A DNA stretch of 64,000 nucleotides from an uncultured Actinomycetes bacterium (lineage in GTDB: Bacteria > Actinomycetota > Thermoleophilia > Gaiellales > JAICJC01). The notes under the pieces are model-generated. The model was not told the DNA's origin and did no database searches. It saw only the letters and a program-made list of their open reading frames with translations. This document shows, piece after piece, positions 23,366 through 37,914 of the stretch. Both the position numbers and the translations under genes were made by a program. Position 1 is the first letter of the stretch. Each line of letters starts with the position of its first letter. The DNA lies in assembly GCA_963843705.1 (NCBI GenBank), contig CAWJLQ010000009.1:56770-120769 (forward strand), written 5' to 3'.

Positions 23366-24048
23366 GCCGGTGTCCGCACCCGCCGCCCGGCGAGCGCGCG
23401 CAGCCACCCGCGCAGCTCCTCGACGCCCTCGCCCGTGCGCGCGCTCGCGAGGATGCGCTCCGCCCCGGGGTTGACCGCGTCGATGTGGTGGAGGAGCGTG
23501 TCGAGATCGAGCTCGATGTGGGGCAGGAGGTCGAGCTTGTTCACGACGATCAGCTCGCAGCTTCGGAACATCAGCGGGTACTTGAGCGGCTTGTCCTCGC
23601 CCTCCGTCACCGAGCACACCATCGCCCGCGCGTCCTCGCCGACCCGGAACTCCGCCGGGCAGACGAGGTTGCCGACGTTCTCGATCACGAGCAGGTCGAT
23701 CTCCGCGAGCGGCAGCTCGGCGAGCGCCGAGCGGACCATGTTCGCGTCCAGGTGGCACTCGCCGCCGAAGCCCGCGCCGGTGTTCAGCTGGGTCACGGGC
23801 ACGTGCAGGCTGGCCAGCCGGTCGGCGTCGAGCGAGCCCTGCACGTCGCCCTCGAGCACGCCGACCCGGACGCCCTCGATCGGCTCGGCCAGCGCGCGCT
23901 CGAGGAGCGACGTCTTGCCCGCCCCCGGCGCGCTCATCAGGTTGAGGACGGTGACGTCGTGGCGGTCGAAGTCGGCCCGGTTGGCTGCGGCGATCGTGTT
24001 GTTGGCGTCGAGGGCGTCCTCGACGATCCTCACCCTGGTGCGATGCAT
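23362..24048 (-). CDS. hypB: Hydrogenase nickel-insertion GTPase
   Basis: SAPGAGKT, ECHLDA, ENVGNLVCPAEF, EGEDKPLKYP, NKLD. ATG at 24048. Confidence 0.97.
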   Translation of the reverse strand: MHRTRVRIVEDALDANNTIAAANRADFDRHDVTVLNLMSAPGAGKTSLLERALAEPIEGVRVGVLEGDVQGSLDADRLASLHVPVTQLNTGAGFGGECHLDANMVRSALAELPLAEIDLLVIENVGNLVCPAEFRVGEDARAMVCSVTEGEDKPLKYPLMFRSCELIVVNKLDLLPHIELDLDTLLHHIDAVNPGAERILASARTGEGVEELRGWLRALAGRRVRTPA

Positions 24049-24386
24049 GCCGCCTCCTCCACGTCGATCTCGTCCACGACCAGCTCCTCGCCGGCCTCGA
24101 TGGTAACGTCCGCCGCTCCGCACCGTGGGCAGCGGAAGGCGGGGATGTCCGGCTCCCATCCGCACGCGCAGGCGCCGCAGCGCAGGCGCACGTCGATCTC
24201 GGCGAGCTCGAGCCGGGCGCCCTCGCAGACCGTGTCGCGGGCGCAGATGTCGAACGAGAACCGCAGCGAGTCGGGCACGACCTGGCGCATCCGCCCGACC
24301 CGCACCCGCACCGCGGTCACGCGGCGGCCGTCGGCATGACGCTCCGCCGTCGCGACGACGGCGCTCGCGATCGAGAGCTCATGCAT
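24030..24386 (-). CDS. hypA: Hydrogenase nickel chaperone
   Basis: N-terminal MHELSI and CxxC...CPRCG zinc site. Confidence 0.96.
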   Translation of the reverse strand: MHELSIASAVVATAERHADGRRVTAVRVRVGRMRQVVPDSLRFSFDICARDTVCEGARLELAEIDVRLRCGACACGWEPDIPAFRCPRCGAADVTIEAGEELVVDEIDVEEAACIAPG

Positions 24387-24882
24387 GCTGCAGCTCGGCC
24401 ACCGTCTCGAGCACGACGTCGGCCGCACGGGCGATGGACGCCTGCACCGCGTCCGAGAGCCCGAAGCCGACGTCCTCGACGACCTCCGGCTCGCAGGCGA
24501 CGACGAACACGCGGCCCGGCCAGCCGCCGACGTGCTTCACGAAGCGCAGCACCGTCTGCGGATCCATGCCGTGGGGGTCGAGCACCTGGCCGTCCTCGAT
24601 CTGGCCGTCGACGTCGTCCGCCTCGGCCTCCATGACATAGAGCGTTCCCGCCTCGCCCCCCTGCCGGCTCACGTCGACGAGGATCAGCGCGTCGTAGCCG
24701 CGCATCACCTCGTACGCCAGGTCGAGCCCGCCGGTGCCGAAGTCCATCACGTGCACTCCGGGGGGAAGCGTACGGCCGGCGAGCGCCTTCGCCACCTCGC
24801 CGCCGAAGCCGTCGTCGCGCATCCATGCGTTGCCGATGCCGGCGACGAGGATCTGGGTGGTCCGCTGGGCGGTCTCGGTCAT
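24379..24882 (-). CDS. Hydrogenase maturation endopeptidase (HybD/HupD family)
   Basis: GIGNAWMRDDGFG, LILVD, PHGMDP. Confidence 0.92.
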   Translation of the reverse strand: MTETAQRTTQILVAGIGNAWMRDDGFGGEVAKALAGRTLPPGVHVMDFGTGGLDLAYEVMRGYDALILVDVSRQGGEAGTLYVMEAEADDVDGQIEDGQVLDPHGMDPQTVLRFVKHVGGWPGRVFVVACEPEVVEDVGFGLSDAVQASIARAADVVLETVAELQHA

Positions 24883-25181
24883 GGCAGCTGCACCTCGTGT
24901 GCGAAGAAGAAGAGATAGCGGCCGGTCTCGCGCATGAGCTCCTGGCCGGGATCGTCGTCCACGGTGACGGCCAGGTGGACACGGTCGTCGTAGTCGACGT
25001 AGATGCGCTCGAGCGTGGCCCGGCGGCCGTCGAGCATGCGGTCGAAGGGGTCGCGCTCGGTGCCGGGCCGCAGGACGAGGGTGGCGCCGCGCTCGAACGT
25101 GACGCCGCCGACCGTGGCCCGCTCCTCGCCGGGAACGTCGTTCGCGCCCGGGAGGGCGCCGGGGCGGGGGCCGCTAGCCAT
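24879..25181 (-). CDS. Hydrogenase-associated protein resembling the C-terminal domain of HhaC
   Basis: LRPG...LDGRRATLERI...HLAVTVDDDPG...GRYLFF resembles the HhaC C-terminus as I recall it; has its own RBS GGGAGG. Confidence 0.65.
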   Translation of the reverse strand: MASGPRPGALPGANDVPGEERATVGGVTFERGATLVLRPGTERDPFDRMLDGRRATLERIYVDYDDRVHLAVTVDDDPGQELMRETGRYLFFFAHEVQLP

Positions 25182-25968
25182 CGCCCGCCTCCCGCAGGCC
25201 GGAGTGCAGCCGCACGATCTCCTCGGGCGTCGTCCGGAGCGCGCGCTCGAGCATCTCGCGCACCGCGCCGTCCTGGGCCGCCGCCTGCTCGCGCTCGGCG
25301 TCGGTCAGCGCGTGCACGTGCAGGACGAGCGCCTCCTCGATCTCGGTGTTGTCGAAGAGGTCGCCGCCGCTGCGCGGAGAGATCCGGGGATGGTCGGGCA
25401 GGACGATCGCGGCCCCGAGCACGACGTCGTCCTCGGGCGTCGCCAGCACGGGCCAGATGTTGACGCTCTCGCACCCGGCCTCGAGCGGCGAGACGAACCG
25501 GCCGGCCGAGATCCGCACGAGCACGTGGGTGGAGACCAGCGAGCGTTCCAGCGCCGCCGCGCGGTCGAGTCCCGGCGTGGCGGAGGCGGTGTTGTGCACG
25601 CACGCCCGCACGCGGACGCGGCCGCCGTCGGCGGCGTCGCTTCGCAGCGTGAAGCGCCCGCCGGGGAACTCCGCCGTCGCCCGCCCGCCGACCGCCGCCG
25701 GGCCGAGCTCGACGCGGCGCTCGCGGGCCTCGTGCCGCGCACCCGTAGGGGCGAGGTAGCGCAGCGTGGCCGAGAGCGTCGCGCCGGGCCCAGGCTCGGC
25801 CAGGCATTCGACCCGCGCATGGTCGAAGGCGCCGGCGCACTCGGCGGCGTAGGCGGGCGGGTACACGATCCCGAACGGCGTCGGGGTCGCGTTCTTGGCG
25901 GCCCCCGGGGTGTACGGGTACAGGGCGTAGCCCTCGTAGAGCAGCGTATGCACGAGCTCATCCAGCAT
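25174..25968 (-). CDS. Hydrogenase-associated protein, HhaC N-terminal part
   Basis: LLYEGYALYPY, NIWPVL, IVLPDHPRI, DLFDNTEIEEAL motifs typical of group 1h cluster HhaC. Confidence 0.75.
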   Translation of the reverse strand: MLDELVHTLLYEGYALYPYTPGAAKNATPTPFGIVYPPAYAAECAGAFDHARVECLAEPGPGATLSATLRYLAPTGARHEARERRVELGPAAVGGRATAEFPGGRFTLRSDAADGGRVRVRACVHNTASATPGLDRAAALERSLVSTHVLVRISAGRFVSPLEAGCESVNIWPVLATPEDDVVLGAAIVLPDHPRISPRSGGDLFDNTEIEEALVLHVHALTDAEREQAAAQDGAVREMLERALRTTPEEIVRLHSGLREAGDG

Positions 25969-26635
25969 CCGGATCCTCCAGCAGCTCGGAGACGGCGGCG
26001 TCGAAGCTGTGCAGCCCGCGGCCCGAGCGGCGCGCGTTCAGCGCCGCCAGCGTCTCGGGCTGCAGCCGCACCCACCCGCCGCCGGGGTAGTGCTCGTCCA
26101 TCATCGCCCGCCACACCGAGAGCCGCATGCGGAAGCGGGCGGTGGCGCTCCACGGCACCGGCACGACCTGGAGCCGGCCCTCGCCGTCGCGGTAGAGGAT
26201 CGTGCCGTTGAAGTGGAAGCTCATCGGCACGGCGCCGTCGGCGAGCGCGTAGAAGTACTTCGCCGCCGCCACCTCGAGGTCGTAGGTGCAGGGGACGTCC
26301 AGCGAGAAGTCGCCGGCGCCCGTGAACCCGGGCACGAGCGCGACCAGCCGGGCCAGGTGCAGGCCGTGATCGGGCGGCGCCCACGACTCGGCCGGCCCGA
26401 AGAGCTCGGCCAGGCGGGCGCGCGTCTCCGGGTCGTAGCTGCGCCGGGCGGGGTCGATCATCACCTGGACGACGAGCGCCATCGACTGGATCTCGTAGCC
26501 GCTCGCGTCGGCGACCGTGCCGGCGAAGACGAGCGTGGGCGCAGCGGCGTGGGGCAGATGCGTCGCCGTCGAGACGGCGAACTCGGGGTCGGGCACCGTG
26601 GCGGGGCGCTGCTCCGACGTGGAGGGCGCGCTCAC
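25958..26635 (-). CDS. DUF6084 family protein (HhaB-like)
   Basis: PARRSY, ELFG, VPCTYDLEVAAAKYF, FHFNGTI, WRAMMDEHYP. GTG at 26635. Confidence 0.82.
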   Translation of the reverse strand: MSAPSTSEQRPATVPDPEFAVSTATHLPHAAAPTLVFAGTVADASGYEIQSMALVVQVMIDPARRSYDPETRARLAELFGPAESWAPPDHGLHLARLVALVPGFTGAGDFSLDVPCTYDLEVAAAKYFYALADGAVPMSFHFNGTILYRDGEGRLQVVPVPWSATARFRMRLSVWRAMMDEHYPGGGWVRLQPETLAALNARRSGRGLHSFDAAVSELLEDPDAG

Positions 26636-27264
26636 GCCGGCGACCCCGCCGCCCGGCGCAGGCCGGCGAAGAATTCGGGCACGGCCGTCTCGATGGCGGC
26701 GCCGCCCGAGATGCCCTCCCAGCGCGCCTTGATCATCCCCACCAGCCGGTAGCAGTCGTCCACGGGGGCGACGACGTACTCGTGGGGCGTGGCCAGGCGG
26801 TGTGCGATCAGGGCCTCGGCATCGGTCTCGAGATCGTCGAGGACCGGGTTTCGCTCGACCAGCGCCGCCCATGCGTCCAGCGCCAGCTCGGACTCGGTCG
26901 CTCCCGCCGGGCTGGGGTAGAAGGCGACCATCCCGCCGGTCACGCTGCTGCGCAGGAAGAACGCGAGTCCGATCGGGATCTGGAACCCGGCCCAGAGCTC
27001 GTCCGGGCAGTCGAAGTCGGTCAGCCAGACCGTGCGGGTGCCGGCGGGCCGGTACTCCGGATCGCCGGAGTGCAGCCCCCAGCACGCCTCGCAGGAGCAC
27101 ACGATGCGGCGCTCCTCCAGGTGCAGCAGGTGGCGGTGGTCGTCGGGGATGCGGGCGTTGCAGATCTCGCAGCGCTCGTCCGGCCGCCGGCTGGGGTCGG
27201 GCGCCGCCGCCGGGCTCGGCCGGGCCAGCGCGCGCATCGACGCGACCAGGTCGGAGCGGCTCAC
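26632..27264 (-). CDS. DUF5947 family protein (HhaA-like)
   Basis: ERCEIC...HRHL...CSCEAC, QIPIGLAFF, FYPSPAGATESEL, PVDDCYRLVG. GTG at 27264. Confidence 0.82.
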   Translation of the reverse strand: MSRSDLVASMRALARPSPAAAPDPSRRPDERCEICNARIPDDHRHLLHLEERRIVCSCEACWGLHSGDPEYRPAGTRTVWLTDFDCPDELWAGFQIPIGLAFFLRSSVTGGMVAFYPSPAGATESELALDAWAALVERNPVLDDLETDAEALIAHRLATPHEYVVAPVDDCYRLVGMIKARWEGISGGAAIETAVPEFFAGLRRAAGSPA

Positions 27265-28151
27265 ACCGCCACCCGCACCCCGCCGGCCTCGAGCAGCGGC
27301 ACGGGGCGCAGCTGGAGCGGCTCGCCTCCCGCCGCCCGGCCCGCGCGGGGGAGGTCGAACTCCACCCCGCACGACGGGCAGCGCAGCATCCCGTCGGCCA
27401 GCGTGCCCGCGCACAGCGGCTCGCCGCAGGCGGCGCACCCGTCCACGTAGGCGAGCAGCGAGCCGGCGACGTTCGCGACCAGCAGGGAGACGCCGTCGGC
27501 CTCGAGCGCGCGCACGCCGCCCGGCTCGAGCTCCTCCGCCGCGGTGAGGGGCACCCACCGCGGCGGAGGTTCGGCCGCCGCGACCGGTTCGAGCGCCCCG
27601 CCGGCATGGAGGACGGGGAGCTCCAGCGAGAAGCGGGTGCGGCGGCCGCTCGGGGGGGTCTCTGCGACGCCCTGGACGTCGAGGCCCGCCAGGTCGGGCG
27701 CATGCTCGTCCAGCGCCTGCTTGATGGCCAGCTCGAGCGTCGCCCGCGACGCGGCGCAGCCGTTGCAGCTGCCCGTCAGCGCGAGCCTGGCCACGCCGTC
27801 CTCGAGCCCGAGCAGCTCGACGTCGCCGCCGTGCGAGGCCATGTACGGCCGCACCGTGGCGAGCGCCTCGGCCACCCGCTGCTCGAGCGCGACCGGGTAG
27901 AGGTCGTGGATCAGGAGCAGGCTCGACACGGTGCCGTCCTGCACGAGCGCATCGCGCACGATGGCGCCGGGCCCACCGGATTCGTCGAGCGCGGCCATGA
28001 TCCGGGCCAGCCCCTCGCCGTACATGGCGATCACCGCGCCCACCAGCTCCGCGGCCACGTCGCGGGCATGCGGATCGGCCAGGCCGTCGAGCTCCGCCTG
28101 GAGCTCGGAGACCCGGGCGACGAGGTCGTCGGGGACGCCGTCGCCGGTCAT
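27261..28151 (-). CDS. hhyE: NifU-domain Fe-S protein with C-terminal Rieske-like domain (HhyE-like)
   Basis: LLLIHDLYP, VRPYMASHGGDVEL, GSCNGC NifU motif. Directly after hhyL. Confidence 0.8.
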   Translation of the reverse strand: MTGDGVPDDLVARVSELQAELDGLADPHARDVAAELVGAVIAMYGEGLARIMAALDESGGPGAIVRDALVQDGTVSSLLLIHDLYPVALEQRVAEALATVRPYMASHGGDVELLGLEDGVARLALTGSCNGCAASRATLELAIKQALDEHAPDLAGLDVQGVAETPPSGRRTRFSLELPVLHAGGALEPVAAAEPPPRWVPLTAAEELEPGGVRALEADGVSLLVANVAGSLLAYVDGCAACGEPLCAGTLADGMLRCPSCGVEFDLPRAGRAAGGEPLQLRPVPLLEAGGVRVAV

Positions 28152-28152
28152 G

Positions 28153-29931
28153 TCACGCGAGCCCGGTCGGGGTGTGGACCACCTTTCGCACCTTTCCGGC
28201 GCCGGTGTACATGTGCACGCCGCAGGGCAGGCACGGGTCGAAGCTGCGCACGGCGCGCATGATGTCCACGCCCTTGAAGTTCTCCGGGCCGTTCTCCTCG
28301 AAGATGGGCGTGTTCTGGACGGCGTCCTCGTACGGGCCGGGGGTGCCGTAGGTGTCGCGCGGGCTGGCGTTCCACGGCGTCGGCGGGTACGGCTGGTAGT
28401 TCGCGATCTTGCCGTCGCGGATCACCATGTGGTGCGAGAGCACGCCGCGGGCCGCCTCGTGGAAGCCGCAGCTGACGGCCTGGTCGGGCACCTTGAACTC
28501 GCGCCACGACTTCGTCCGCCCGGCCCGCACCTCCTTGAGCGCCCGCTCGAGGCAGTGCAGCCCGACGAGCGCGGCGTAGGCCTGGTGGTACGACCGCGCC
28601 CGGTCGCGCTCGACGGCGTTGGACTTCTCCGGCACCTTCCACTCGAGCTCCATCTCCGGCAGCGCGGCCGACTTCGGGAGCACCATCTGGATGGAGTCGC
28701 CCGTGGCCTTGAGGTAGCCGAAGTCGACGATGCCGGCCTTGGCGGTGCACCACTGGCGGGCGAACGGGCCGCCGCCGGTGTCGCAGCAGACGTGCTCGCC
28801 GGTGCGCTTGTCGAAGATGCGCGGCGACACCACCCAGCTGTACTTGTCGGCGAAGTCGCGCTTCTGCGGCTTGGGCAGCGTCTGCTTGTTCCACGGGTGG
28901 TTCTTGTCGACCGGGTTCCCCAGCGGGTCGTGGGTGACGAAGGTGGGCTCGTTCTCCCAGCCGTCGAAGTACGAGCTCCCGAGCAGGATGCGGATCATCA
29001 GGTTGATCTCGACCAGGTCGGTGGTGACCAGCTCGCCGTTGATCGCGATCCCCGGCGTGATGTAGCGGTGGCGGCCCCACTCGGTCATCGTCTTGTAGTC
29101 GTAGTCGACGTAGTCGGGGTCGTCGAAGCAGCCCCAGTTGACGAGGTTCGTCTCGCGGTAGCCGACCATGTCGTACCCCGGCAGCTCCTGCAGGAAGAAG
29201 TCGTACAGGTCGTCGTGCATGGGCACGGTGCGCTTGACGTAGTCCATGTAGCGCATCAGGCGCACGTAGTAGTCGGTCAGCGTCTGATGGGTGATGTCCG
29301 CGCTGCAGCCGCCCGGCATGATCGTCGAGGGATGCGTGTGCCGACCGCCGAAGAGGCAGTACATCTCACGCGTGTAGCGCGCCACCTGGAGCGTCTCCAG
29401 ATAGAAGCTGCCGGTGAACGGGTTGAGCGCCCGCATGATGTCGGCGATCGTCGCGTAACCGTGGATGTCCTTGTGCGGCGCCGACGTGTTCTCGGCCTTG
29501 GCGAGCAGGGTCGGGTTCGTGTCCTTCACCATCTGCTCGCAGAAGTCCACGTTCGCCATGCAGTCGTTGAAGATCGCGTGGTCGAACATGTAGTCGGCCG
29601 ACTCGGCCAGGTTGAACGCGAGATCGCCGAGCGGCGGCGGCTTCACCGAGTAGGCCATGTTCTGGTTCAGGCACGAGCACGTGCAGTGGTTGTCGCCGCA
29701 GATCCCGCAGATGCGGCTGGTGATGAAGTGCGCGTCGCGTGGGTCGATGCCCTTCATGAAGATGTCGAACCCGCGGAACACCATCGAGGTCGAGTAGCAC
29801 TTCAGCACCTGGCGGTTCGTGAAGTCGATCTCCGTGTGGATCCCGAGGCTGCCGACGATGCGCGTGATCGGATCCCACGACATCTCCTTGACGACGACCT
29901 TGCGCTCGCCGGACGTCTCAACTGTTGCCAT
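28153..29931 (-). CDS. hhyL: Group 1h [NiFe]-hydrogenase large subunit
   Basis: WDPITRIVGSLG, L1 SRICGICGDNH and L2 SFDPCLPCGVH, the group 1h signatures. RBS GGAGGAG before the ATG at 29931. Confidence 0.97.
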   Translation of the reverse strand: MATVETSGERKVVVKEMSWDPITRIVGSLGIHTEIDFTNRQVLKCYSTSMVFRGFDIFMKGIDPRDAHFITSRICGICGDNHCTCSCLNQNMAYSVKPPPLGDLAFNLAESADYMFDHAIFNDCMANVDFCEQMVKDTNPTLLAKAENTSAPHKDIHGYATIADIMRALNPFTGSFYLETLQVARYTREMYCLFGGRHTHPSTIMPGGCSADITHQTLTDYYVRLMRYMDYVKRTVPMHDDLYDFFLQELPGYDMVGYRETNLVNWGCFDDPDYVDYDYKTMTEWGRHRYITPGIAINGELVTTDLVEINLMIRILLGSSYFDGWENEPTFVTHDPLGNPVDKNHPWNKQTLPKPQKRDFADKYSWVVSPRIFDKRTGEHVCCDTGGGPFARQWCTAKAGIVDFGYLKATGDSIQMVLPKSAALPEMELEWKVPEKSNAVERDRARSYHQAYAALVGLHCLERALKEVRAGRTKSWREFKVPDQAVSCGFHEAARGVLSHHMVIRDGKIANYQPYPPTPWNASPRDTYGTPGPYEDAVQNTPIFEENGPENFKGVDIMRAVRSFDPCLPCGVHMYTGAGKVRKVVHTPTGLA

Positions 29932-29939
29932 CTCTCCTC

Positions 29940-31004
29940 CTACCAGCGCTTGGCGTAGCCGGTTGAGAGGCGCGCGCCGCGGCGGCGCCACTCCGGCTCG
30001 ACGTCGTAGTTGTTCTTCATGTGCCGCATGCGGAAGTAGTGGATCATGGGGCCGTAGCTGAACCGCTCGAAGTTCGCGGCCGCCTTGCCCCACTTGTCGG
30101 GCTCCATGAACGGCATGTACTTGTCGGGGAAGCCCGGCATCGTGCAGGCCATGCAGATGCCGCCGACGTTCGGGCAGCCGCCGATGCCGTTGACCCATCC
30201 CCGGACGGGGACGTTGCACTTCGTGACCGGCCCCTTGCATCCGAGCTTCACGAGGCAGCGGTGGTCGGAGCCGTACTCCTCCGCGAACCGGCCCTGCTCG
30301 ACGAAGCCGGCGCGATTGCAGCCCTCGCGGGTCGTGCGCCCGAAGAGCCACTTCGGCCGCAGCTGGTCGTCCAGCTCCGGCGCCGGCGCCATCCCGGCCA
30401 GGTGGAACACGAGATACATCAGCGTCTCGGTCATGTTGTCGGGCTGGGCGGGGCAGCCCGGGATGCAGACGACGGGCAGGCCGGCCGTCGACTTCCACTT
30501 CCAGCCCAGGTAGTCGGGCAGGCCCATGGCGCCCGTGGGGTTGTTCTTCATCGCCGGGATGCCGCCGTAGGTGGCGCACGTGCCGACGGCGACCACCGCC
30601 GCGGCCTTCGGCGCCAGCCGGTCGACCCACTCGTTGGTCGTGATCGGCTGGCCGGTGTCGGGGTTCACGCCGAACCCGGACCAGTGGCCGTCGCCGTTGA
30701 TCTCCTCGTTGCCGATCGACCCCTCGACGACGAGCACGAACGGGTCGAGCTTGCCCTCCTCGGCGTCGTACCAGGCCTGGATGTACTCGTCGCCGACCTC
30801 GAACGCGATCACCTGGTTGTGGATCACGACCTTGGGCATGCCGGGGATGACGCCCTGGATGATGTCCTCGAGGCTGGGGCTGGTCGCCGACGTCATGGCG
30901 ACCGAGTCGCCCTCGCAGGAGAGCCCCGTCGTCATCCAGAGGACGTGCGCGGTCACCTGCTCGGTCGCCGTCTGGTTGGGTGCGTATTCGATTCCGCTCG
31001 CCAT
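29940..31004 (-). CDS. hhyS: Group 1h [NiFe]-hydrogenase small subunit (no Tat signal)
   Basis: GLSCEGDS, GTCATYGGI, PGCP, CLVKLGCKGP..KCN, GGCPNVGGICMACTMPGFPD. Adjacent to hhyL. Confidence 0.96.
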   Translation of the reverse strand: MASGIEYAPNQTATEQVTAHVLWMTTGLSCEGDSVAMTSATSPSLEDIIQGVIPGMPKVVIHNQVIAFEVGDEYIQAWYDAEEGKLDPFVLVVEGSIGNEEINGDGHWSGFGVNPDTGQPITTNEWVDRLAPKAAAVVAVGTCATYGGIPAMKNNPTGAMGLPDYLGWKWKSTAGLPVVCIPGCPAQPDNMTETLMYLVFHLAGMAPAPELDDQLRPKWLFGRTTREGCNRAGFVEQGRFAEEYGSDHRCLVKLGCKGPVTKCNVPVRGWVNGIGGCPNVGGICMACTMPGFPDKYMPFMEPDKWGKAAANFERFSYGPMIHYFRMRHMKNNYDVEPEWRRRGARLSTGYAKRW

Positions 31005-31040: not shown

Positions 31041-32147
31041 TCAACAGATCCGCGGCAGCGGATCGCCCACCAGCTGGTCCATCACCCTCCGGCCGCCGAA
31101 GGCCGTCTCCACGAGCACCATCCCCGGCGGCTCGCTGCGCACCTCGCCGATCGCCGCCGCCCCCTCGCTGCCCGCGGCCGAGCGCAGGGCGGCCAGGGCG
31201 GCGTCCGCGCCGTCGGGCGCGACGAACGCCACCAGCCTGCCCTCGTTGGCGACGTACATCGGGTCGATCCCGAGCAGCTCGGCCGCGGCCTTGACGACCG
31301 GCGCCACCGGGACGTCCGCCTCGCGCACCACCACCGCCACGCCGGAGGCGCGGGCGAGCTCGTTCAGCACCGAGGCGACCCCGCCGCGGGTGGCGTCGCG
31401 CATGCAGTGCAGGCGGTCGCCGGCGGCATCGAGCAGCGCGTCCACCGCGGGCCAGAGCGAGCGGGTGTCCGACTCGATCTCGGCGTCGAGGTCGAACTGG
31501 TTCCGCGCCAGCATGATGGCCGTGCCGTGCTCGCCGATCGGCCCCGAGACGAGCACGTGGTCGCCGGGGCGGATGGCGTCCGGCGCCACCCGGGCGCGCG
31601 GATCGATCACGCCGATGCCGGTGGTGCAGACGTACATGCCGTCGGCGGCGCCGCGCTCGACGACCTTCGTGTCGCCGCCGACGACCTCGATGCCGGCGGC
31701 CGTCGCCGCGGCCGCGATCGCCTCGATCTCGGCCCGGAGCACGTCGGCGTCCAGGCCCTCCTCGAGGATCAGCGAGACCGTCATCGCCACCGGCCGTGCA
31801 CCCGAGACGGCCAGGTCGTTGACCGTGCCGTTCACGGCCAGCTCGCCGATCGACCCGCCCGGGAAGCGCAGCGGCCGCACGACGAAGCTGTCGGTGGTCA
31901 TCGCCAGCCGGGCTCCGCCGATCTCGACCGCGCCCGCGTCGGCGAGCGCCGCGAGCGCCCCCGACTCCTCGGGAGCGAACGCCGGGACGAGCAGGGCGTC
32001 GATCAGCGTCTGGGTGGCCTTCCCGCCCGCGCCGTGTGCGAGCGTCACCTGCTTGTCGCGGAACCGCGGGCGGCGCGAGCGGACGTGCTCGATCCGGTCG
32101 AGCACCTGCTGCTCGCGGTCGCTCGGGGCCTCACCGGCGGTCTTCAC
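31041..32147 (-). CDS. hypE: Hydrogenase maturation carbamoyl dehydratase
   Basis: LAHGAGG, TTDSFVV, GGDTKVV, MRDATRGG, C-terminal PRIC. GTG at 32147. Confidence 0.97.
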   Translation of the reverse strand: MKTAGEAPSDREQQVLDRIEHVRSRRPRFRDKQVTLAHGAGGKATQTLIDALLVPAFAPEESGALAALADAGAVEIGGARLAMTTDSFVVRPLRFPGGSIGELAVNGTVNDLAVSGARPVAMTVSLILEEGLDADVLRAEIEAIAAAATAAGIEVVGGDTKVVERGAADGMYVCTTGIGVIDPRARVAPDAIRPGDHVLVSGPIGEHGTAIMLARNQFDLDAEIESDTRSLWPAVDALLDAAGDRLHCMRDATRGGVASVLNELARASGVAVVVREADVPVAPVVKAAAELLGIDPMYVANEGRLVAFVAPDGADAALAALRSAAGSEGAAAIGEVRSEPPGMVLVETAFGGRRVMDQLVGDPLPRIC

Positions 32148-33259
32148 ACGACCTCCCGCTCGCGCGCCAGGCGGCCGTAGTTGTAGTAGGCCGCGCACGC
32201 CCCCTCGGGCGACACCATGCACGTCCCGATCGCGTGCTCGGGCGTGCACGCCGTGCCGAACACCTTGCACTCCCACGGCTTGATGACGCCTTTCAGCACC
32301 TCGCCGCACTGGCACGCCTTCGGGTCGGCGACGCGCACGCCGGGCACCTCGAAGCGGGCCTCGGCGTCGAAGTCGCGGTAGGCGTCGGAGAGGCGCAGCG
32401 CGCTCTGCGAGATGAAGCCGAGGCCGCGCCACTCGAAGTGCGGCCGCAGCTCGAACACCTCGGCCATCACCTCGAGCGCGCGCAGGTTGCCCTCGCGCGG
32501 CACGACCCGCGTGTACTGGTTCTCGACCTGGCACCGCCCGGCGCGCAGCTGCCGCAGGATCATCAGGATCGACTGCAGGATGTCGAGCGGCTCGAAGCCC
32601 GAGATCACGACCGGGCGGCCGTAGTCGGCGGGGATGAAGTCGAACGGCCGGGCGCCGACGACGGTGCACACGTGGCCGGGGCCGATGAACCCGTCCAGCC
32701 GCAGGTCGGGGGACTCGAGCAGCGCCCGCAGCGGCGGCACGATCGTGACGTGGTTGCAGATGCACGAGAAGTTGCGCAGCCCCTCGGCCTTGGCCCGCTT
32801 CAGCGTCAGCGCGGTGGAGGGGGCGGTGGTCTCGAAGCCGATGGCGAAGAACACCACCTCGCGGTCGGGATGCTCGCGCGCGATCCGCAGGGCGTCGAGC
32901 GGGGAGTAGACCATGCGCACGTCGGCGCCCTTCGCCTTCGCGTCGAGCAGCGTCTCCTCGGAGCCCGGGACGCGCAGCATGTCGCCGAAGCAGGTGAAGA
33001 TGACGCCGTCGCGGCGGGCGACGGCGATGCCGTCGTCGACGCGGCCCATCGGGATCACGCAGACCGGGCAGCCGGGGCCGTGCACCAGCTCGACGTTCGC
33101 CGGCAGCAGGTCGTCGATGCCGTACTTGTAGATCGAGTGGGTGTGGCCGCCGCAGACCTCCATCACCTTGTAGTGGCGCCCCGGCTCGAGCTCGGACAGG
33201 ATCTCCCCGGCGAGCGCGCGGCCGAGCTCGGCGTCGCGGAACTCGTCGACGAACTTCAT
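32144..33259 (-). CDS. hypD: Hydrogenase maturation protein HypD
   Basis: MEVCGGHTH, GPGCPVCV, GFETT, PGHV, CMVSPEGAC. Confidence 0.97.
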   Translation of the reverse strand: MKFVDEFRDAELGRALAGEILSELEPGRHYKVMEVCGGHTHSIYKYGIDDLLPANVELVHGPGCPVCVIPMGRVDDGIAVARRDGVIFTCFGDMLRVPGSEETLLDAKAKGADVRMVYSPLDALRIAREHPDREVVFFAIGFETTAPSTALTLKRAKAEGLRNFSCICNHVTIVPPLRALLESPDLRLDGFIGPGHVCTVVGARPFDFIPADYGRPVVISGFEPLDILQSILMILRQLRAGRCQVENQYTRVVPREGNLRALEVMAEVFELRPHFEWRGLGFISQSALRLSDAYRDFDAEARFEVPGVRVADPKACQCGEVLKGVIKPWECKVFGTACTPEHAIGTCMVSPEGACAAYYNYGRLAREREVV

Positions 33260-33492
33260 GCGCGGTCCTCCTCGAGGCGGCCGATGGCGACGCCGGCGTG
33301 GACGAGCACCCGGTCACCCGGCTCGACCGGCCAGACGAGGTCGCAGGCCACGTCCTCGGTGGCGTCGGCGTCGTCTGCGCACAGCGCGAACGCGTCGGCG
33401 TCGACGCGCAGGACGCGCATCGGCACGCCCGTGTCGCCGCAGGTGATGCAGCCCGGCGTTGCGTCGCAGGCAGGGGCGGGATCGGCGCTCAT
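33256..33492 (-). CDS. Atypical HypC/HupF-family chaperone (CITCGD N-terminus)
   Basis: PGDRVLVHAGVAI HypC core. Lacks MCLAIP and has GCITCGD instead. ATG at 33492 overlaps the hypC stop. Confidence 0.8.
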   Translation of the reverse strand: MSADPAPACDATPGCITCGDTGVPMRVLRVDADAFALCADDADATEDVACDLVWPVEPGDRVLVHAGVAIGRLEEDRA

Positions 33493-33770
33493 TCGATCAC
33501 GCTCGCCCGCAGCTCCTCCAGCTCCTGCTCGTACTCGGCCCCCATCTGCTCGAGCAGGCGCAGCGTCGCGTGCGCCTCCTCCTCGTCCACCTTGGACAGG
33601 GCGAAGCCGACGTGGATCAGCACCCAGTCGCCGGGGCGGGCGCCTCCGCCCTGGTCGTCCTGGAGCAGGCTGACGTTGATGTTGCGGCGGACGCCGACGA
33701 CGTCGACGCGCGCGATCTGGTGCTCGGGATCGACCAGTTCCACGATCTGCCCGGGTATGGCCAAGCACAT
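33489..33770 (-). CDS. hypC: Hydrogenase maturation chaperone HypC
   Basis: MCLAIPG and GDWVLIHVGFA. Confidence 0.97.
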   Translation of the reverse strand: MCLAIPGQIVELVDPEHQIARVDVVGVRRNINVSLLQDDQGGGARPGDWVLIHVGFALSKVDEEEAHATLRLLEQMGAEYEQELEELRASVIE

Positions 33771-33858
33771 GGAGCACTCCCCTTCCTGGTCGGCCGGGCG
33801 ACGCGCCGAGTGCCCGGCAGGAGTCGTATATCACCCTCTGGAAACGGGTTCTCGTCCG

Positions 33859-33945
33859 TGGTAATCCGGGTGACGGTAATCACGATTACCATACTTCCCG
33901 CCCTCGGGAGGCGACCGCATCCGGACGGCGGAAGCGGCGTACACT
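33859..33945. promoter_or_regulatory. Divergent promoter region with Crp-like site and GGTAATC/GATTACC palindrome
   Basis: GGTGA-N6-TCACG at 33869-33884; GGTAATC-ac-GATTACC at 33875-33890; candidate -10 TATGGT (minus, 33893-33888) for hypC and TACACT (plus, 33940-33945) for crp. Confidence 0.6.
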
Positions 33946-33961
33946 GTGACCTTCAGCAGGC

Positions 33962-34804
33962 GTGGACGGGAGGTTCGAACTGGGACCCGACGCCAGCGAC
34001 GGCGTCCACCCGCGATGGACCGGCCGGCGGGCGGCGCCCGAGCGCCCGAGCTCGTACCGCTACCTGCTCGACCTCGACCTCGACCTGGCCGACGCATTCG
34101 ACGTCCGCATGCGCCTCGTCGCCCGGCCGGCCGTGACGGCGGTGACGTGCGAGGTGGCCGCCGGCGAGCTCGACCTGGCCGGGCCGCAGACCCAGCCGGC
34201 GCAGCTGGGCGTGCTCGTGCTGGCCGGCGTCGTCGTCGTGAGCGTGCGCGTCTGCGACCGCGTGGCCGCGGAGCTGGTCGGCGCCGGCGACCTGCTCCAG
34301 CTCTGCGGCGGCGGGGACGACGACCTGGTCGAGTGCGACGTCGGCTGGCGGGCGCTCGTGCCCAGCCGGTTCGCCCTGCTCGACGAGGCGTTCGCGGAGC
34401 GCACCCGGCCGTGGCCGCAGGTCACCCAGGCGCTGCTGCAGCGGACCGCCCGCCGGATGCGCAACCTGCAGATGCAGCGCGCGATCGCCTCGCAGCCGCG
34501 GCTCGAGGTACGGCTCGCGCTTCTGCTCTGGCACCTGGCCGCCCGCTGGGGCCGGGTCGAGCCCGGCGGGATCCGGCTGCCCCTGCCGCTCACGCATCAG
34601 CTGCTGGGGAAGCTGGTCGGCGCGGAACGGCCGTCGGTGTCGAACGCGCTCGGCCGGCTCGCCCACGCCGGGCTCGTCACCGGGCGCAGCGACGCGTGGC
34701 TCCTGCACGGGTCGATCGAGCGCCAGCTCGCCGCGCTCGGCGAGCCCAGCGAGGGCCGCGCCCACCGCCTCGCGGCCACGATCGGGTCGGGGCGGGGAGG
34801 GTGA
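33962..34804 (+). CDS. Crp/Fnr family transcriptional regulator
   Basis: cNMP-like N-domain (AELVGAGDLL), then RLALLLWHLAARWG and LPLTHQLLGKLVGAERPSVSNAL Crp-type HTH. Start uncertain. Confidence 0.85.
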   Translation: MDGRFELGPDASDGVHPRWTGRRAAPERPSSYRYLLDLDLDLADAFDVRMRLVARPAVTAVTCEVAAGELDLAGPQTQPAQLGVLVLAGVVVVSVRVCDRVAAELVGAGDLLQLCGGGDDDLVECDVGWRALVPSRFALLDEAFAERTRPWPQVTQALLQRTARRMRNLQMQRAIASQPRLEVRLALLLWHLAARWGRVEPGGIRLPLPLTHQLLGKLVGAERPSVSNALGRLAHAGLVTGRSDAWLLHGSIERQLAALGEPSEGRAHRLAATIGSGRGG

Positions 34805-35868
34805 CGCTGGAGCGGGTCGAGTTCACGTCCGAGCAGCGCGTCACCGAGCGCCGCATCGTCCACGTGGTGTGGCTGACGAGCGGTCTCGGCTGCGACGGCG
34901 ACTCGGTGGCGATGACCGCCGCCACGAGCCCCAGTCTGGAGGACCTCCTGCACGGGACGCTCCCCGGCATGCCCCGGATCGTGATCTACAACCCGGTGCT
35001 GGCCTTCGAGACCGGTGAGGAGTTCATGCGCGCCTTCCGTGCCGCCGCGGACGGGGAGCTCGACCCCTTCGTGCTGGTGCTCGAGGGCTCCGTGCCGAAC
35101 GAGGACATCAACGGCGACGGCCACTGGGCCGGCTTCGGCGTCGACCCGGAGACCGGCCAGCCGATCCTGACCACCGCGTGGATCGACCGCCTGGCGCCGC
35201 GGGCGGCCGCCGTGCTCGCGATGGGCACGTGCGCCGCCTACGGCGGCATCCCCGCGATGCGCGGCAACCCCACGGGCGCGATGGGGCTGCGCGACCACCT
35301 CGGCCACGGCTGGCGGTCACGGCTCGGCATTCCGATCGTGAACCTGCCCGGCTGCCCCGTGCAGCCGGACACCATCACCGAGACGCTGCTGCACCTGGCA
35401 CAGCACGTCGCCGGCGTCGAGGCGATGTTCGATCTGGACGACCAGGGCCGGCCCGAGTGGCTCTTCCCGCGCACGGTCCAGGAGGGCTGCGGCCGCGCCG
35501 GCTATGCGGTGGACGGCGTCTTCGCCGAGGATCCGTCCGACACCCGCGGCTGCCTGGTGAAGCTCGGCTGCATGGGCCCGGTGGCGAGGTGCAACGTGCC
35601 GATCAGGGGGTGGATCAACGGCGTCGGTGGGTGCCCGAACGTGGGCGGCATCTGCATCGCCTGCACGATGCCGGGGTTCCCCGACCGGTTCATGCCGTTC
35701 GTGCAGCCGAGCCCGCTGGGCGAGCTGGCGGCGGCCGGACGCCGGTTCACCTACGGCCCGATCCTGCGGCGGCTGCGGCGCAGCGCGATGCGGGAGCACT
35801 TCGACCGCGAGCCCGAGTGGCGCCGGGCGGGCGACACGCTCGCGAGCGGCTACGAGCCGCGCTGGTAG
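34801..35868 (+). CDS. Second group 1h-type hydrogenase small subunit (HhyS paralog) with no adjacent large subunit
   Basis: GLGCDGDS, GTCAAYGGI, PGCP, CLVKLGCMGP..RCN, GGCPNVGGICIACTMPGFPD. Colinear with hhyS. GTG overlaps the crp stop (GTGA). Confidence 0.93.
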   Translation: MTLERVEFTSEQRVTERRIVHVVWLTSGLGCDGDSVAMTAATSPSLEDLLHGTLPGMPRIVIYNPVLAFETGEEFMRAFRAAADGELDPFVLVLEGSVPNEDINGDGHWAGFGVDPETGQPILTTAWIDRLAPRAAAVLAMGTCAAYGGIPAMRGNPTGAMGLRDHLGHGWRSRLGIPIVNLPGCPVQPDTITETLLHLAQHVAGVEAMFDLDDQGRPEWLFPRTVQEGCGRAGYAVDGVFAEDPSDTRGCLVKLGCMGPVARCNVPIRGWINGVGGCPNVGGICIACTMPGFPDRFMPFVQPSPLGELAAAGRRFTYGPILRRLRRSAMREHFDREPEWRRAGDTLASGYEPRW

Positions 35869-35872
35869 GCCG

Positions 35873-36220
35873 GTGCCGACCCGGCTCGTCTTCCGGTGCG
35901 AGTTCTGCGAGGCCGTCCCCGACGCCGAGACGCAGCTCACGCTCGAGTTCCAGCTGCGCGAGCTGGAGTTCGGCGCCTACGTGGACGCTCCGCCGGGCGG
36001 ATGGCTGACCTGGTACGGCAGCGGCCCGCTGGGGCCGCGCCGCTATGCCTGCGACCGCCACCGCGGTGAGCTGATCGCCTACATCCGTACGCACTACGGC
36101 GCGATCGCGCCGAACCCGTGGCGGCGCCCGCCCTTCCCGATGACGACGCGGACGGCCGACACGGAGCGCGCCATCCGCCACGGCGGCCTGTCCGGGATGC
36201 CGAAGTGGGGCCGCTGGTGA
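35873..36220 (+). CDS. Small hypothetical protein with CxxC...CxxH motif
   Basis: GTG 4 nt after the hhyS2 stop; GC3-rich codons; FRCEFC ... YACDRH. Confidence 0.75.
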   Translation: MPTRLVFRCEFCEAVPDAETQLTLEFQLRELEFGAYVDAPPGGWLTWYGSGPLGPRRYACDRHRGELIAYIRTHYGAIAPNPWRRPPFPMTTRTADTERAIRHGGLSGMPKWGRW

Positions 36221-36498
36221 GCGCGGCCGGCGCGTTCGGGCGGCCCGTCGCGGCGGGCGGCGCCGAGAAGCCGTTCGGCGAGCTCACACTCGCGGATGTT
36301 CGTGCCCGCGCCTCCGAGCTGCGGGACGCGGCCGGCTGGGGGCCGACCGCGCGGGTGGCTCCGGTCGCGCGCGCCTGGGCCGACCTCGCCCGCGCGATGG
36401 AAGCCGCGGGCGCGGGCCGCGTGGCCGACCTCGGCGCCGAGGCCGAGGCGATGGCCGGCCGGTTGTGGGTCGTCCCGCCAGGCGGCAGCCTGCTCTAG
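36217..36498 (+). CDS. Small hypothetical helical protein
   Basis: GTGA overlap with the previous gene; KPFGELTLADVRARASEL...LWVVPPGGSLL. Confidence 0.7.
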   Translation: MSAAGAFGRPVAAGGAEKPFGELTLADVRARASELRDAAGWGPTARVAPVARAWADLARAMEAAGAGRVADLGAEAEAMAGRLWVVPPGGSLL

Positions 36499-36586
36499 CG
36501 ACACCGGGGCCAGGCCCCGCAACGTCGGCCGTTGCACTTCCGTGACGCTTCCGTGCCGGCGCCCGGCCCGTCGCCCCCGGCGGGTG

Positions 36587-37360
36587 CTAGCCCGAGACGG
36601 GCTCATCGATGAGCTCGCGCATCGTCGCCAGTGCGGCCGCCAGCAGCCGTGAGACCTGCATCTGGCTCACGCCGAGCTCCTCGGCGATCGCGCTCTGCGT
36701 CAGTCCGCGGCCGAACCGCAGAAGGATCAGCCGGCGCCGGAACGGGGGTAGCCGGGCGAGCACGGCCGCGATCGCCGCCCGGTGCTCGGCGCGGGTCAGG
36801 TCGGGATCCTCCGCCGCGAGCCGTTGCGGGCGGGCGGCGACGTCCGAATCGTCGAGTGCGGGCAGCGCCCAGTACGCGTCCCGCGCCGCCAGCGCCTCGG
36901 CGACCGCCGACGTCCCGGTGCCGAGCGACTCGGCGACCTCCGCGTGCGTGGGCAGCCGGCCGAGCCGGTGGCTGAGCCGATCGCGCTCGCGCGCGGCGTT
37001 CCGGCTCGCATCCTGGAGGTCGCGCGGCATCCGCACCGCCCAGCCGTGGTCGCGCAGGACGTGGCGCAGCTCGCCGTGGATGCGTGCGCCGGCATAGGTC
37101 GTGAACCGGACGCCGCGATCGGTGCGGAAGCGGTCGATCGCGACGATCAGCGCGACGACCCCCGCCTGGGCGAGGTCGTCGTCGGGGATGCCGGCGCCTC
37201 GATAGCGGCGGGCCGCGCGGCGCGCGAGCCGCTGGTGGCGGAGGACGAGCTCCTCGCGTGCGCCCGTATCGCCCGACTGGCTCCACGTCGCCAGCAGCTC
37301 GTCGCTCGCGTGGGCGAGGCGCGCGGAGCGGGGCCGGGGGCGCAGACTGGGCGACGACAA
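36587..37360 (-). CDS. SigB/SigF/SigG-family RNA polymerase sigma factor
   Basis: DDLAQAG, AIDRFRTDRGVRFTTYA, GELRHVLRDHGWAVRMPRDLQ, LTQSAIAEELGVSQMQVSRLL. TTG at 37360 chosen from the promoter position. Confidence 0.92.
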   Translation of the reverse strand: MSSPSLRPRPRSARLAHASDELLATWSQSGDTGAREELVLRHQRLARRAARRYRGAGIPDDDLAQAGVVALIVAIDRFRTDRGVRFTTYAGARIHGELRHVLRDHGWAVRMPRDLQDASRNAARERDRLSHRLGRLPTHAEVAESLGTGTSAVAEALAARDAYWALPALDDSDVAARPQRLAAEDPDLTRAEHRAAIAAVLARLPPFRRRLILLRFGRGLTQSAIAEELGVSQMQVSRLLAAALATMRELIDEPVSG

Positions 37361-37372
37361 CGGATGTACTCC

Positions 37373-37399
37373 GTACCACGATAGAAGTTCGCCCAAACC
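37373..37399 (-). promoter_or_regulatory. SigB/SigF-type promoter (GGTTT-N16-TGGTAC)
   Basis: Upstream of the second sigma gene; shares CGTGGTACGGA with 16489-16499. Confidence 0.6.
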
Positions 37400-37470
37400 T
37401 CGGCCTGTCCGGCTCGCCTCCGGACGGGGCTCCGCGACGCGCACAGCCGCCGCCGAATACGATCACCCCG

Positions 37471-37914
37471 GTGCCCGATCGTCCGCTTCCCACCGGCCAG
37501 GCCGCGCTCGACCTCGAGCTCGCCCATCTGTTCGTTTCGATGCCGATGCGCCTCGACCGGCCGCGCAGCACCGAGTACGGCATGCCGCCGCTGCACGGCG
37601 TCTTCGGCGGCGTCTCCGCCGACGAGCACGGGTGGCTGTTCGTCTGGGTGGCGTATCTCCCGTCGGCGGGCTCGGCACCGCACATCTCGGTGTGGCCGGC
37701 GGCGCAGGTCGGCGCGTCGTTCGACCTCGTCCTGCCGGCGACCGCCGAGCTCGAGGTGATCGCGCGCGTCGACACGGCCGAGCGCGCGGCCGCCCGGCTG
37801 AAGCACCACCTGGCCGGGATCGCGCAGAGGCGGATCGACCCTGACGTCGAGTATCTGCACCGCGCGGTGGCGGCCTACCGGCAGGACCTGCGCAGGCGCC
37901 GCGACGGCGCCTGA
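37471..37914 (+). CDS. Hypothetical protein
   Basis: GTG 7 nt after a TACGAT -10 box; host-like codon bias; ends 12 nt before the MFS gene. Confidence 0.65.
   Translation: MPDRPLPTGQAALDLELAHLFVSMPMRLDRPRSTEYGMPPLHGVFGGVSADEHGWLFVWVAYLPSAGSAPHISVWPAAQVGASFDLVLPATAELEVIARVDTAERAAARLKHHLAGIAQRRIDPDVEYLHRAVAAYRQDLRRRRDGA

Follow-up and report, generated by a model that had tools for sequence, protein, structure and literature searches.

We analysed a 64,000-nt stretch of contig CAWJLQ010000009.1 (positions 56,770 to 120,769; hereafter the window) from an uncultured bacterium of the Thermoleophilia, in which four genes, crp, hhyS2, P3 and P4, lie divergent from the hyp-hhy gene cluster of a group 1h [NiFe]-hydrogenase. 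We propose that the group 1h (atmospheric-H2) hydrogenase has its control module at this locus: a dedicated hhy regulator of the Crp/Fnr family would be co-translated with a sensor-type small subunit, HhyS2, that reports the H2 or redox state. We give this reading a probability of about 0.5. A Crp-family dimer would bind GGTAAT-N4-ATTACC between the divergent promoters and, from this palindrome, control both the hyp-hhy operon and its own. HhyS2 would bind three iron-sulfur (Fe-S) clusters and would be reduced upon H2 oxidation, probably through a borrowed fraction of the large subunit HhyL, or in response to reduction of the acceptor pool. By reporting its redox state to the regulatory circuit it would let hydrogenase synthesis track H2 or redox supply, with P3 and P4 as separable accessory modules of the same regulon. 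We infer DNA binding by the regulator, the cluster content of HhyS2, its pairing with HhyL and signal transfer to Crp. Three lines of comparative evidence suggest the sensor role: the coupling of hhyS2 to a transcription factor, its long retention with intact ligands but faster evolution, and three independent signalling associations.

The locus was mapped with a third-position GC frame plot, simple gene calls and Pfam. All four reading frames of the cassette are open where the sequence-only reading, made before any database search, had placed them, at 33962-36498 on the plus strand. crp (33962-34804) encodes a 280-aa transcription regulator, hhyS2 (34801-35868) a 355-aa orphan paralogue of the group 1h small subunit, P3 (35873-36220) a 115-aa zinc-ribbon-like CxxC/CxxH protein, and P4 (36217-36498) a mostly helical protein of 93 aa. 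Read directly from the sequence, the stop of crp and the start of hhyS2 overlap in a GTGA at 34801-34804, preceded by GGGGAGG; the TAG stop of hhyS2 (35866-35868) is separated by a 4-nt gap from the GTG start of P3 at 35873; and P3 and P4 overlap in a second GTGA at 36217-36220. The gene order, coordinates and junctions are those first described. In a window of ~74% G+C, the frame plot backs crp, hhyS2 and P3, and P4 is ambiguous from composition alone. The cassette had also been described as divergent from a group 1h operon, and a complete hyp-hhy cluster does lie on the minus strand, its first gene, hypC1, being divergent from crp at an intergenic distance of 191 bp.

Does HhyS2 have a large subunit of its own? 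The genome, 4.2 Mb in 13 contigs and 97.5% complete, holds only two NiFe_hyd_SSU_C genes, those of HhyS1 and HhyS2, and two large subunits, hhyL and a group 3b-like protein with its own delta and gamma subunits. Since there are just two small subunits of this type, and the other large subunit is 3b-like with a small subunit of its own, HhyS2 is a true orphan, as had been proposed. Its gene adjoins no large-subunit gene; the genes on its 3' side are P3, P4 and then a convergent sigma factor gene. By this census hhyL encodes the sole large subunit of the genome that could plausibly pair with HhyS2. The group 3b-like (sulfhydrogenase/Hyh-type) enzyme is encoded elsewhere in the same genome (contig C5, ~396050-399310; locus L002); it comprises gamma, delta and alpha subunits and comes with a dedicated protease.

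The earlier description of HhyS2 as full length with the Fe-S cysteine set intact also stands. The protein contains Oxidored_q6 and NiFe_hyd_SSU_C (E 6.3e-22 and 2.7e-20), aligns with HhyS1 at 61% identity across 350 residues without a gap, and finds its best solved relative in 5aa5_A (HofK; E 1.4e-136, residues 15-352); judged by its domains and closest solved relative, HhyS2 is a group 1h small subunit. All 55 HhyS2 sequences share ten invariant cysteines: C31, C144, C185, C230, C251, C257, C264, C278, C285 and C288. At residue 34, which supplies the carboxylate of the C-x-x-D motif, 44 of them have D and 11 have E. The predicted ligand set for three Fe-S clusters is therefore kept, with residues assigned to clusters from the motif and from PMC11023054, where the proximal cluster of a solved 1h-type enzyme is ligated by three Cys and one Asp.

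In the regulator, HTH_Crp_2 is the only Pfam domain (E 1.5e-11). Solved Crp relatives, Mycobacterium tuberculosis (Mtb) Crp and GlxR, align at residues ~133-245 with the single sequence and at 133-242 with a 35-sequence profile. Neither a cNMP_binding match at E<=0.1 nor any alignment to solved Crp proteins before residue ~133 was found. Because both the Pfam and the PDB alignments start there, the input domain, the N-terminal ~130 aa, is unrecognised; it may be a diverged cyclic-nucleotide (cNMP) barrel. A search for an Fnr-type cluster was negative, in that the cysteines of the window regulator are not conserved across 10 orthologues. The ratio of non-synonymous to synonymous substitution rates (dN/dS) is ~0.24 for this gene.

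The putative operator is the perfect palindrome GGTAATCACGATTACC at 33875-33890; from its centre it is 112 nt to the start of hypC1 and 80 nt to that of crp. The pattern GTAA-N6-TTAC is present in 79 of 80 hypC1-crp intergenic stretches, once in 54 and twice in 25, and the best unrelated 4-mer palindrome reaches 16 of the same 80. At <=1 mismatch the window 16-mer has its sole match in the 4.2-Mb genome here, and its reversed control has none. The loose pattern occurs genome-wide at 3 places versus 4 for the reversed control, which is chance level, and a wider regulon therefore cannot be detected by this pattern. At 33860-33865, 9 bp before the full palindrome on its upstream side, there is an additional GGTAAT half-site. 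A promoter and terminator consensus scan of 33650-36700 gave no match. The regulator is tied to the hhy cluster by a conserved, genome-unique predicted operator; it is probably dedicated to the two divergent operons and autoregulatory.

How constant is this arrangement? When the regulator alignment was scanned against one genome per species, 201 relatives were found, and locus counts refer to the best 80. These 80 are all Thermoleophilia-type metagenome-assembled genomes (MAGs) titled Solirubrobacterales, Solirubrobacteraceae, Gaiellales or uncultured Actinomycetes. Within these loci 79 of 81 regulator genes face hypC1, and neither exception has HhyS2. Downstream sequence of at least 2.2 kb was available for 76 regulator genes, and HhyS2 follows 57 of them. 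Among the 76, the layout crp-hhyS2-P3-P4 is found in 26, crp-hhyS2 in 22, crp-hhyS2-P4 in 8 and crp-hhyS2-P3 in 1, while crp-P3-P4 without hhyS2 accounts for 6 and crp alone for 13. From these counts the regulator is the constant element, and HhyS2 and P3-P4 are separable additions. The four-gene synteny thus stands for the regulator facing hypC and for HhyS2 behind it; it does not stand as one obligate unit, since some loci have Crp by itself and others combine it with just HhyS2 or just P3-P4.

A second survey, of the HhyS2 protein, gave matches in 26 of 61 relatives' genomes (our own counted), many with two copies ~4.8 kb apart on opposite strands. Among 16 loci examined from relatives of the window's genus and order, all 12 two-copy loci consist of crp-hhyS2 divergent from hypC-hypC-hypD-hypE-hhyS-hhyL-hhyE, and in 9 of the 10 relative loci with both starts refined crp and hhyS2 overlap by 4 nt. 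Genomes flagged as unpublished are included in the 26 of 61 (G015) and in the 51 of 301 given below for the phylum (G294, G078, G207, G180 and G108, the last being one of eight two-copy genomes of that sample); no other result depends on them. Two variants of the layout were seen: in L040 and L042, from the same genus, hypF directly follows hhyS2, where P3-P4 would stand, and L121 carries tandem regulator copies at 5907-9411, crp-hhyS2 and then a second crp with P3-P4.

Trees were quick IQ-TREE runs with SH-aLRT support only, from which small subunits shorter than ~325-330 aa or longer than 375 aa and frameshifted copies had been dropped. In a tree of 121 small subunits, 55 HhyS2 sequences fall on one side of a branch (SH-aLRT 94), sister to 55 HhyS1 of the same lineage, and a branch of length 1.12 (support 100) parts both groups from the HhyS1 of crp-alone loci. 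With 15 sequences added, support for the HhyS2 clade is 100. Between the closest genome pairs, dN/dS is 0.02-0.05 for HhyS1 versus 0.08-0.35 for HhyS2, except that the order is reversed in the L085/L088 pair; only close-pair values are quoted because the extreme codon bias (GC at third positions ~0.97) compresses NG86 dS. Over 939 pairs the median dN ratio is 1.8. Nine positions are fixed differently from HhyS1 to HhyS2 (S29G, E31D, H62Y, Q64P, T145A, K153R, I181L, A186V and L215G). Relaxation in HhyS2 clusters in residues 1-15, 76-90, 166-180, 196-210 and 241-255, the cluster-binding segments and residues 151-165 remain tightly conserved, and the last ~20 residues are missing in a few members.

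Is HhyS2 simply a neutral or decaying duplicate without a function of its own? Its looser sequence would fit this explanation, with 102 near-invariant columns versus 202 in HhyS1 and a mean column entropy of 0.91 versus 0.48. Yet a single old clade has been kept in 57 of 76 loci and in several families, its frames are intact, every ligand is retained and dN/dS is well below 1, so that we consider drift the least probable of the explanations weighed here, and a very improbable one. The sequence-only reading had called for a tree and a dN/dS comparison, which give a separate old clade under purifying selection, and it had named a strain-specific duplicate under relaxed selection as a possible outcome; what the comparison gives instead is a lineage-wide module with its ligands kept, though under weaker constraint than HhyS1. 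On this evidence HhyS2 is an old functional paralogue, under purifying selection that is weaker than, or different from, that on HhyS1, and not a decaying copy.

Which function, then, does selection maintain? HhyS2 could be an alternative catalytic subunit that forms an isoenzyme with HhyL, with shifted cluster potentials or another acceptor, co-regulated with Crp but sending it no signal. HhyS2 is almost confined to loci with a close type of HhyL: in HhyS2-bearing loci HhyL is 84-94% identical to that of the window, versus 62-63% in 11 of the 13 crp-alone loci, which carry a distant hhySL type. The full length of HhyS2, its invariant Fe-S ligands, the strong conservation of its cluster segments and of residues 151-165, and the presence of HhyL as the only compatible large subunit in the genome point the same way. 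Several observations speak against an isoenzyme: hhyS2 is coupled translationally to a transcription factor and not to hhyL, its non-synonymous rate in close pairs is ~2-5 times that of HhyS1, some members lack the C-terminal residues, and other orphan 1h small subunits are linked to signalling proteins. The sequence features nevertheless agree fully with an isoenzyme, which we regard as the most serious competitor of the sensor reading, though an unlikely one.

The signalling links of those other orphans come from the wider phylum. A 1h-like small subunit was found in 51 of 301 genomes of a phylum-wide sample, with two copies in eight, the window's genome included. Five two-copy genomes were checked for HhyL; G268 and G305 have one HhyL each, and G217 has one that is split over two contigs. 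No Crp gene adjoins the orphans of G217 and G268; directly 3' of each, on the same strand and at a gap of 0-3 nt, stands a gene for a PAS-PAS-GGDEF-EAL protein of 731-738 aa. In 81 genomes of that other Thermoleophilia family (f8), a small subunit lies just upstream in 4 of 4 close orthologues (at least 70% identity) of the PAS-GGDEF-EAL protein, and in none of 26 other loci with PAS-GGDEF-EAL paralogues. The four pairs, L136 4420-7683 (+), L134 4391-7690 (-), L168 2200-5594 (-) and L169 ~3991-7246 (-), are spread over two genera, with three genomes in the first and one in the second. Their small subunits form a clade of their own (support 100), which branches within the HhyS1-type sequences and not within the HhyS2 clade.

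Fusions extend this pattern. Among longer relatives of the small subunit, collected as 42 proteins at E<=1e-20, P0134 (761 aa, three members) joins a small subunit to PAS, HisKA_2 and HATPase_c domains, and the partial P0128 of a Thermoleophilaceae member joins one to two PAS domains and the start of a HisKA domain and is 82% identical to the PAS-coupled orphan. P0152 and P0154 are hybrid kinases that end in a diverged small-subunit-like domain, and P0127 and P0132 carry small subunits fused to CHAT domains. Most of the other long relatives are small-plus-large or HypE-plus-small fusions and may be frameshifted gene calls. All cysteines are kept in P0134 and P0128, and the medial set is partly lost in P0152 and P0154. 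Substitutions next to the proximal ligands recur across independent orphan lineages: S30G, I49L, K154R and D34E are common to HhyS2 and the PAS-coupled clade, and HhyS2 shares H63Y with P0134. The PAS-GGDEF-EAL neighbours and the PAS-histidine-kinase fusions suggest, as independent comparative support, a signalling role for orphan 1h small subunits. Our broader proposal, that such subunits are recurrently evolved Fe-S input modules plugged at least three times into Crp, PAS-GGDEF-EAL and PAS-histidine-kinase outputs, is tentative, and we hold it at somewhat less than even odds.

Two further orphans were noted in this survey. G431, a single-contig genome, has five small and three large subunits. 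One of its orphans is the PAS-coupled one; its second orphan, at L167 6254-7315 (+), is 96% identical to the canonical copy, follows furA-katG (Fur-family regulator and catalase-peroxidase) and looks like a recent duplicate. An orphan from a different family, L135 5897-7423 (-), has a C-terminal extension of ~170 residues without a Pfam match and sits on a long tree branch.

Must a sensor of this kind borrow a large subunit? HhyS2 alone might serve as a three-cluster Fe-S sensor of redox state or oxidants, or as an electron relay, reading the Hhy acceptor pool rather than H2. G346 (97% complete), whose orphan lies at L168 4503-5594, has this single, PAS-coupled small subunit, and searches of the genome found no match to PF00374, the NiFe large subunit, or to HypD. 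The recurrent changes also lie beside the proximal cluster, which would be exposed if the large subunit were absent. G346, however, is a MAG in 130 contigs from another clade, and the Crp-coupled HhyS2 is never found away from the hyp-hhy cluster, both regulator genes that do not face hypC1 being without it. We think stand-alone action improbable for HhyS2, and pairing with HhyL more likely.

Several points weigh against HhyS2 as a reporter to Crp. Any direct contact between the two proteins is hypothetical, and this Crp, with its unrecognised N-terminal domain, offers no recognisable counterpart to the PAS-type partners that accompany the other orphans. The kept ligands and the conserved NPTGAMGL stretch fit an ordinary catalytic subunit equally well. 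No regulator residues dependent on HhyS2 were found: the Crp residues at least 90% conserved in the company of HhyS2 are all kept in 5 Crp-P3-P4 and 2 close Crp-only loci. In 19 of 76 loci the regulator works with no HhyS2 behind it, so the part of HhyS2 would at most be that of a modulator. The loci are kin, so the layout counts describe one lineage and not independent events. The comparative parallels have their own limits, in that G346, which lacks a detected large subunit, is a fragmented MAG, and the fusions come from gene calls on metagenomes, several of them known from one member only; some could be frameshift artefacts. A complex prediction for HhyS2 (35-row alignment) with the regulator scored 0.00 in two runs and is evidence neither way. 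Of the original proposal that HhyS2 signals the H2 or redox state to Crp, the signalling parallels elsewhere back the general idea, and the search for HhyS2-dependent Crp residues does not.

What do the two small proteins contribute? An alignment of 27 P3 sequences has 36 invariant columns, including C9, C12, C60 and H63. The P3 family comprises 760 database clusters, all "hypothetical" and without Pfam domains, and occurs in 14 of 251 class-level genomes, in several copies in some of them and also in a genome without a detected hydrogenase. At the 23 P3 places viewed, the window's own included, three others adjoin crp or hypC. NicO-type nickel transporters make up 2 of the 10 proteins scanned next to P3 paralogues, and the remaining contexts are unrelated. 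The two P3 paralogues with NicO-type neighbours are those of L190 738-1848 (+) and L192 1498-2612, the L192 copy also standing just upstream of hypC-hypC. P4, aligned from 30 sequences and likewise without a Pfam family, shows conservation at the protein level across 41 related loci; dN/dS is ~0.27 for P3 and ~0.48 for P4.

Structure-based searches added little. Neither the P3 model (pLDDT 67.9) nor the P4 model (pLDDT 82.1) has a Foldseek match in the PDB at E<=0.001, and a wide VIA-align search with P4 returned generic helical bundles only (Z<=5.7). In the ESM Atlas the nearest clusters to P3 are unnamed actinobacterial hypotheticals, with ZZ finger and Fin as weak leads only (<=0.90), and P4 has no usable match. 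Conservation nevertheless marks P3 and P4 as real, separable genes. A metal-related or regulator-accessory role for them is a lead only, the NicO-type neighbours hinting at metal for P3.

That hint bears on a further explanation, in which HhyS2 would help in assembly or maturation, or act as a titrator, holding HhyL or Fe-S clusters during biogenesis, with P3 as a metal-handling partner. The cassette adjoins hyp genes, hypF follows HhyS2 in some relatives, P3 has an invariant CxxC...CxxH arrangement, and two of the P3 paralogues examined stand beside nickel transporters. HhyS2 and P3-P4 occur independently of each other, however, P3 paralogues are found in unrelated contexts and in a genome without a detected hydrogenase, and the searches made here gave no link to a small-subunit chaperone. 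We judge a maturation role quite improbable, a shade more so than stand-alone sensing, and continue to prefer HhyS2 as a sensor-type subunit.

The divergent hyp-hhy operon runs on the minus strand. It begins with hypC1 (33489-33770; HupF_HypC, E 2.1e-25) and continues with the hupF-like hypC2 (33256-33492; HupF_HypC, E 8.4e-12, backed by the frame plot), hypD (32144-33259; HypD, E 1.6e-156), hypE (31041-32147; AIRS and AIRS_C domains), hhyS1 for the canonical group 1h small subunit (29940-31004; Oxidored_q6 and NiFe_hyd_SSU_C), hhyL for the group 1h large subunit (28153-29931; NiFeSe_Hases, also by whole-genome search) and an hhyE-like gene for a NifU-Rieske protein (27261-28151; NifU and Rieske domains). 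Pfam and gene calls place the remainder of the cluster at 19851-27264: DUF5947, DUF6084, two unknown genes, a HycI-type protease, hypA, hypB, SIS and hypF. The two unknown genes (24879-25968, minus strand; 100 and 264 aa, without a Pfam family) lie between DUF6084 and the maturation protease. On the other side, a 170-aa antisense open reading frame without a family overlaps P4 at 36094-36606 (-) and is probably no gene. A convergent gene of the sigma-70 family follows at 36587-37444 (-), and then a 147-aa unknown gene at 37471-37914 (+); conservation of either, or of the downstream MFS gene, with the cassette was not found in relatives' loci. Sequencing datasets matching 33700-36600 included no RNA; they comprised five soil-metagenome DNA rows from two studies, none with half of the words.

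How does this arrangement compare with known H2 sensors? As in group 2b systems (HoxBC/HupUV, HoxJ, HoxA), a hydrogenase-derived Fe-S subunit would stand within the circuit that controls the genes of an energy-conserving hydrogenase. The PAS domain of HoxJ has a role in HoxB-HoxJ pairing, and the fused or adjacent PAS partners of other orphan small subunits recall this pairing. Unlike group 2b, the cassette contains neither a dedicated large subunit nor a kinase, its partner is a one-component Crp-family regulator, and HhyS2 belongs to the 1h clade (best PDB match 5aa5_A). The group 2b sensor is thought to signal by contact with a signalling protein (PMC6978683; table of PMC5037454). Group 2c of HydDB, listed in the same table of PMC5037454 as "diguanylate cyclase-linked (putative)" [NiFe]-hydrogenases, is predicted to sense H2 with enzymes of cyclic di-GMP (c-di-GMP) metabolism. 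The orphan small subunit and PAS-GGDEF-EAL pairs of family f8 resemble that arrangement, but group 2c enzymes are complete small-plus-large group 2 hydrogenases, whereas these pairs have only a 1h-type small subunit, and the partner in the window is of the Crp family.

Among catalytic small subunits, HhyS2 resembles HofK (Cupriavidus necator AH, 5AA5) and HhyS (Mycobacterium smegmatis) in its domains, length, C-x-x-D motif and all cysteines, and differs from both in standing apart from a large subunit, in its co-translation with a regulator and in its fixed substitutions relative to HhyS1. The regulator shares its C-terminal helix and HTH_Crp_2 with Crp/Fnr proteins such as Mtb Crp, Corynebacterium glutamicum GlxR and cyanobacterial NtcA/PtrA. 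Its predicted palindrome, like Crp/Fnr operators, has 4-bp half-site cores 6 bp apart; the NtcA-type consensus is GTA-N8-TAC. Unlike these relatives, the regulator has no recognised cNMP signature or conserved Fnr cysteines, and it appears dedicated to one locus. In mycobacteria, according to PMC13098282, neither of the global regulators Crp1 and Crp2 bound the huc promoter, and the direct hydrogenase regulators of the model given there are still to be identified. Our literature search, which covered material other than supplementary gene tables, found no description of a Crp-HhyS pair, of hhyS as a second copy or an orphan, or of GGDEF linked to a small subunit. The cassette lacks the large subunit and the partners that define groups 2b and 2c, and the comparison suggests hydrogenase-based sensing outside both.

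High-affinity, O2-insensitive hydrogenases are the main biological sink of atmospheric H2, and their regulation is largely unresolved. In the Solirubrobacterales and relatives, a lineage abundant in soil, the locus offers a candidate hhy regulator together with its predicted operator. It also offers a sensor candidate that can be tested, the small-subunit paralogue that has no large subunit. A spare subunit coupled to Crp here and spare subunits linked to signalling elsewhere together suggest a new way to sense H2 or redox, and the Crp, c-di-GMP and histidine-kinase partners suggest that hydrogenase small subunits have been reused as sensor domains. If this is true, H2 and redox sensing would extend past group 2b/2c and the [FeFe] group C/D sensors, and the subunit could supply an O2-stable Fe-S sensor part for synthetic H2 biosensors. 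Aerobic oxidisers of atmospheric H2 would then sense H2 flux or respiratory redox without a regulatory hydrogenase, and possibly without any large subunit.

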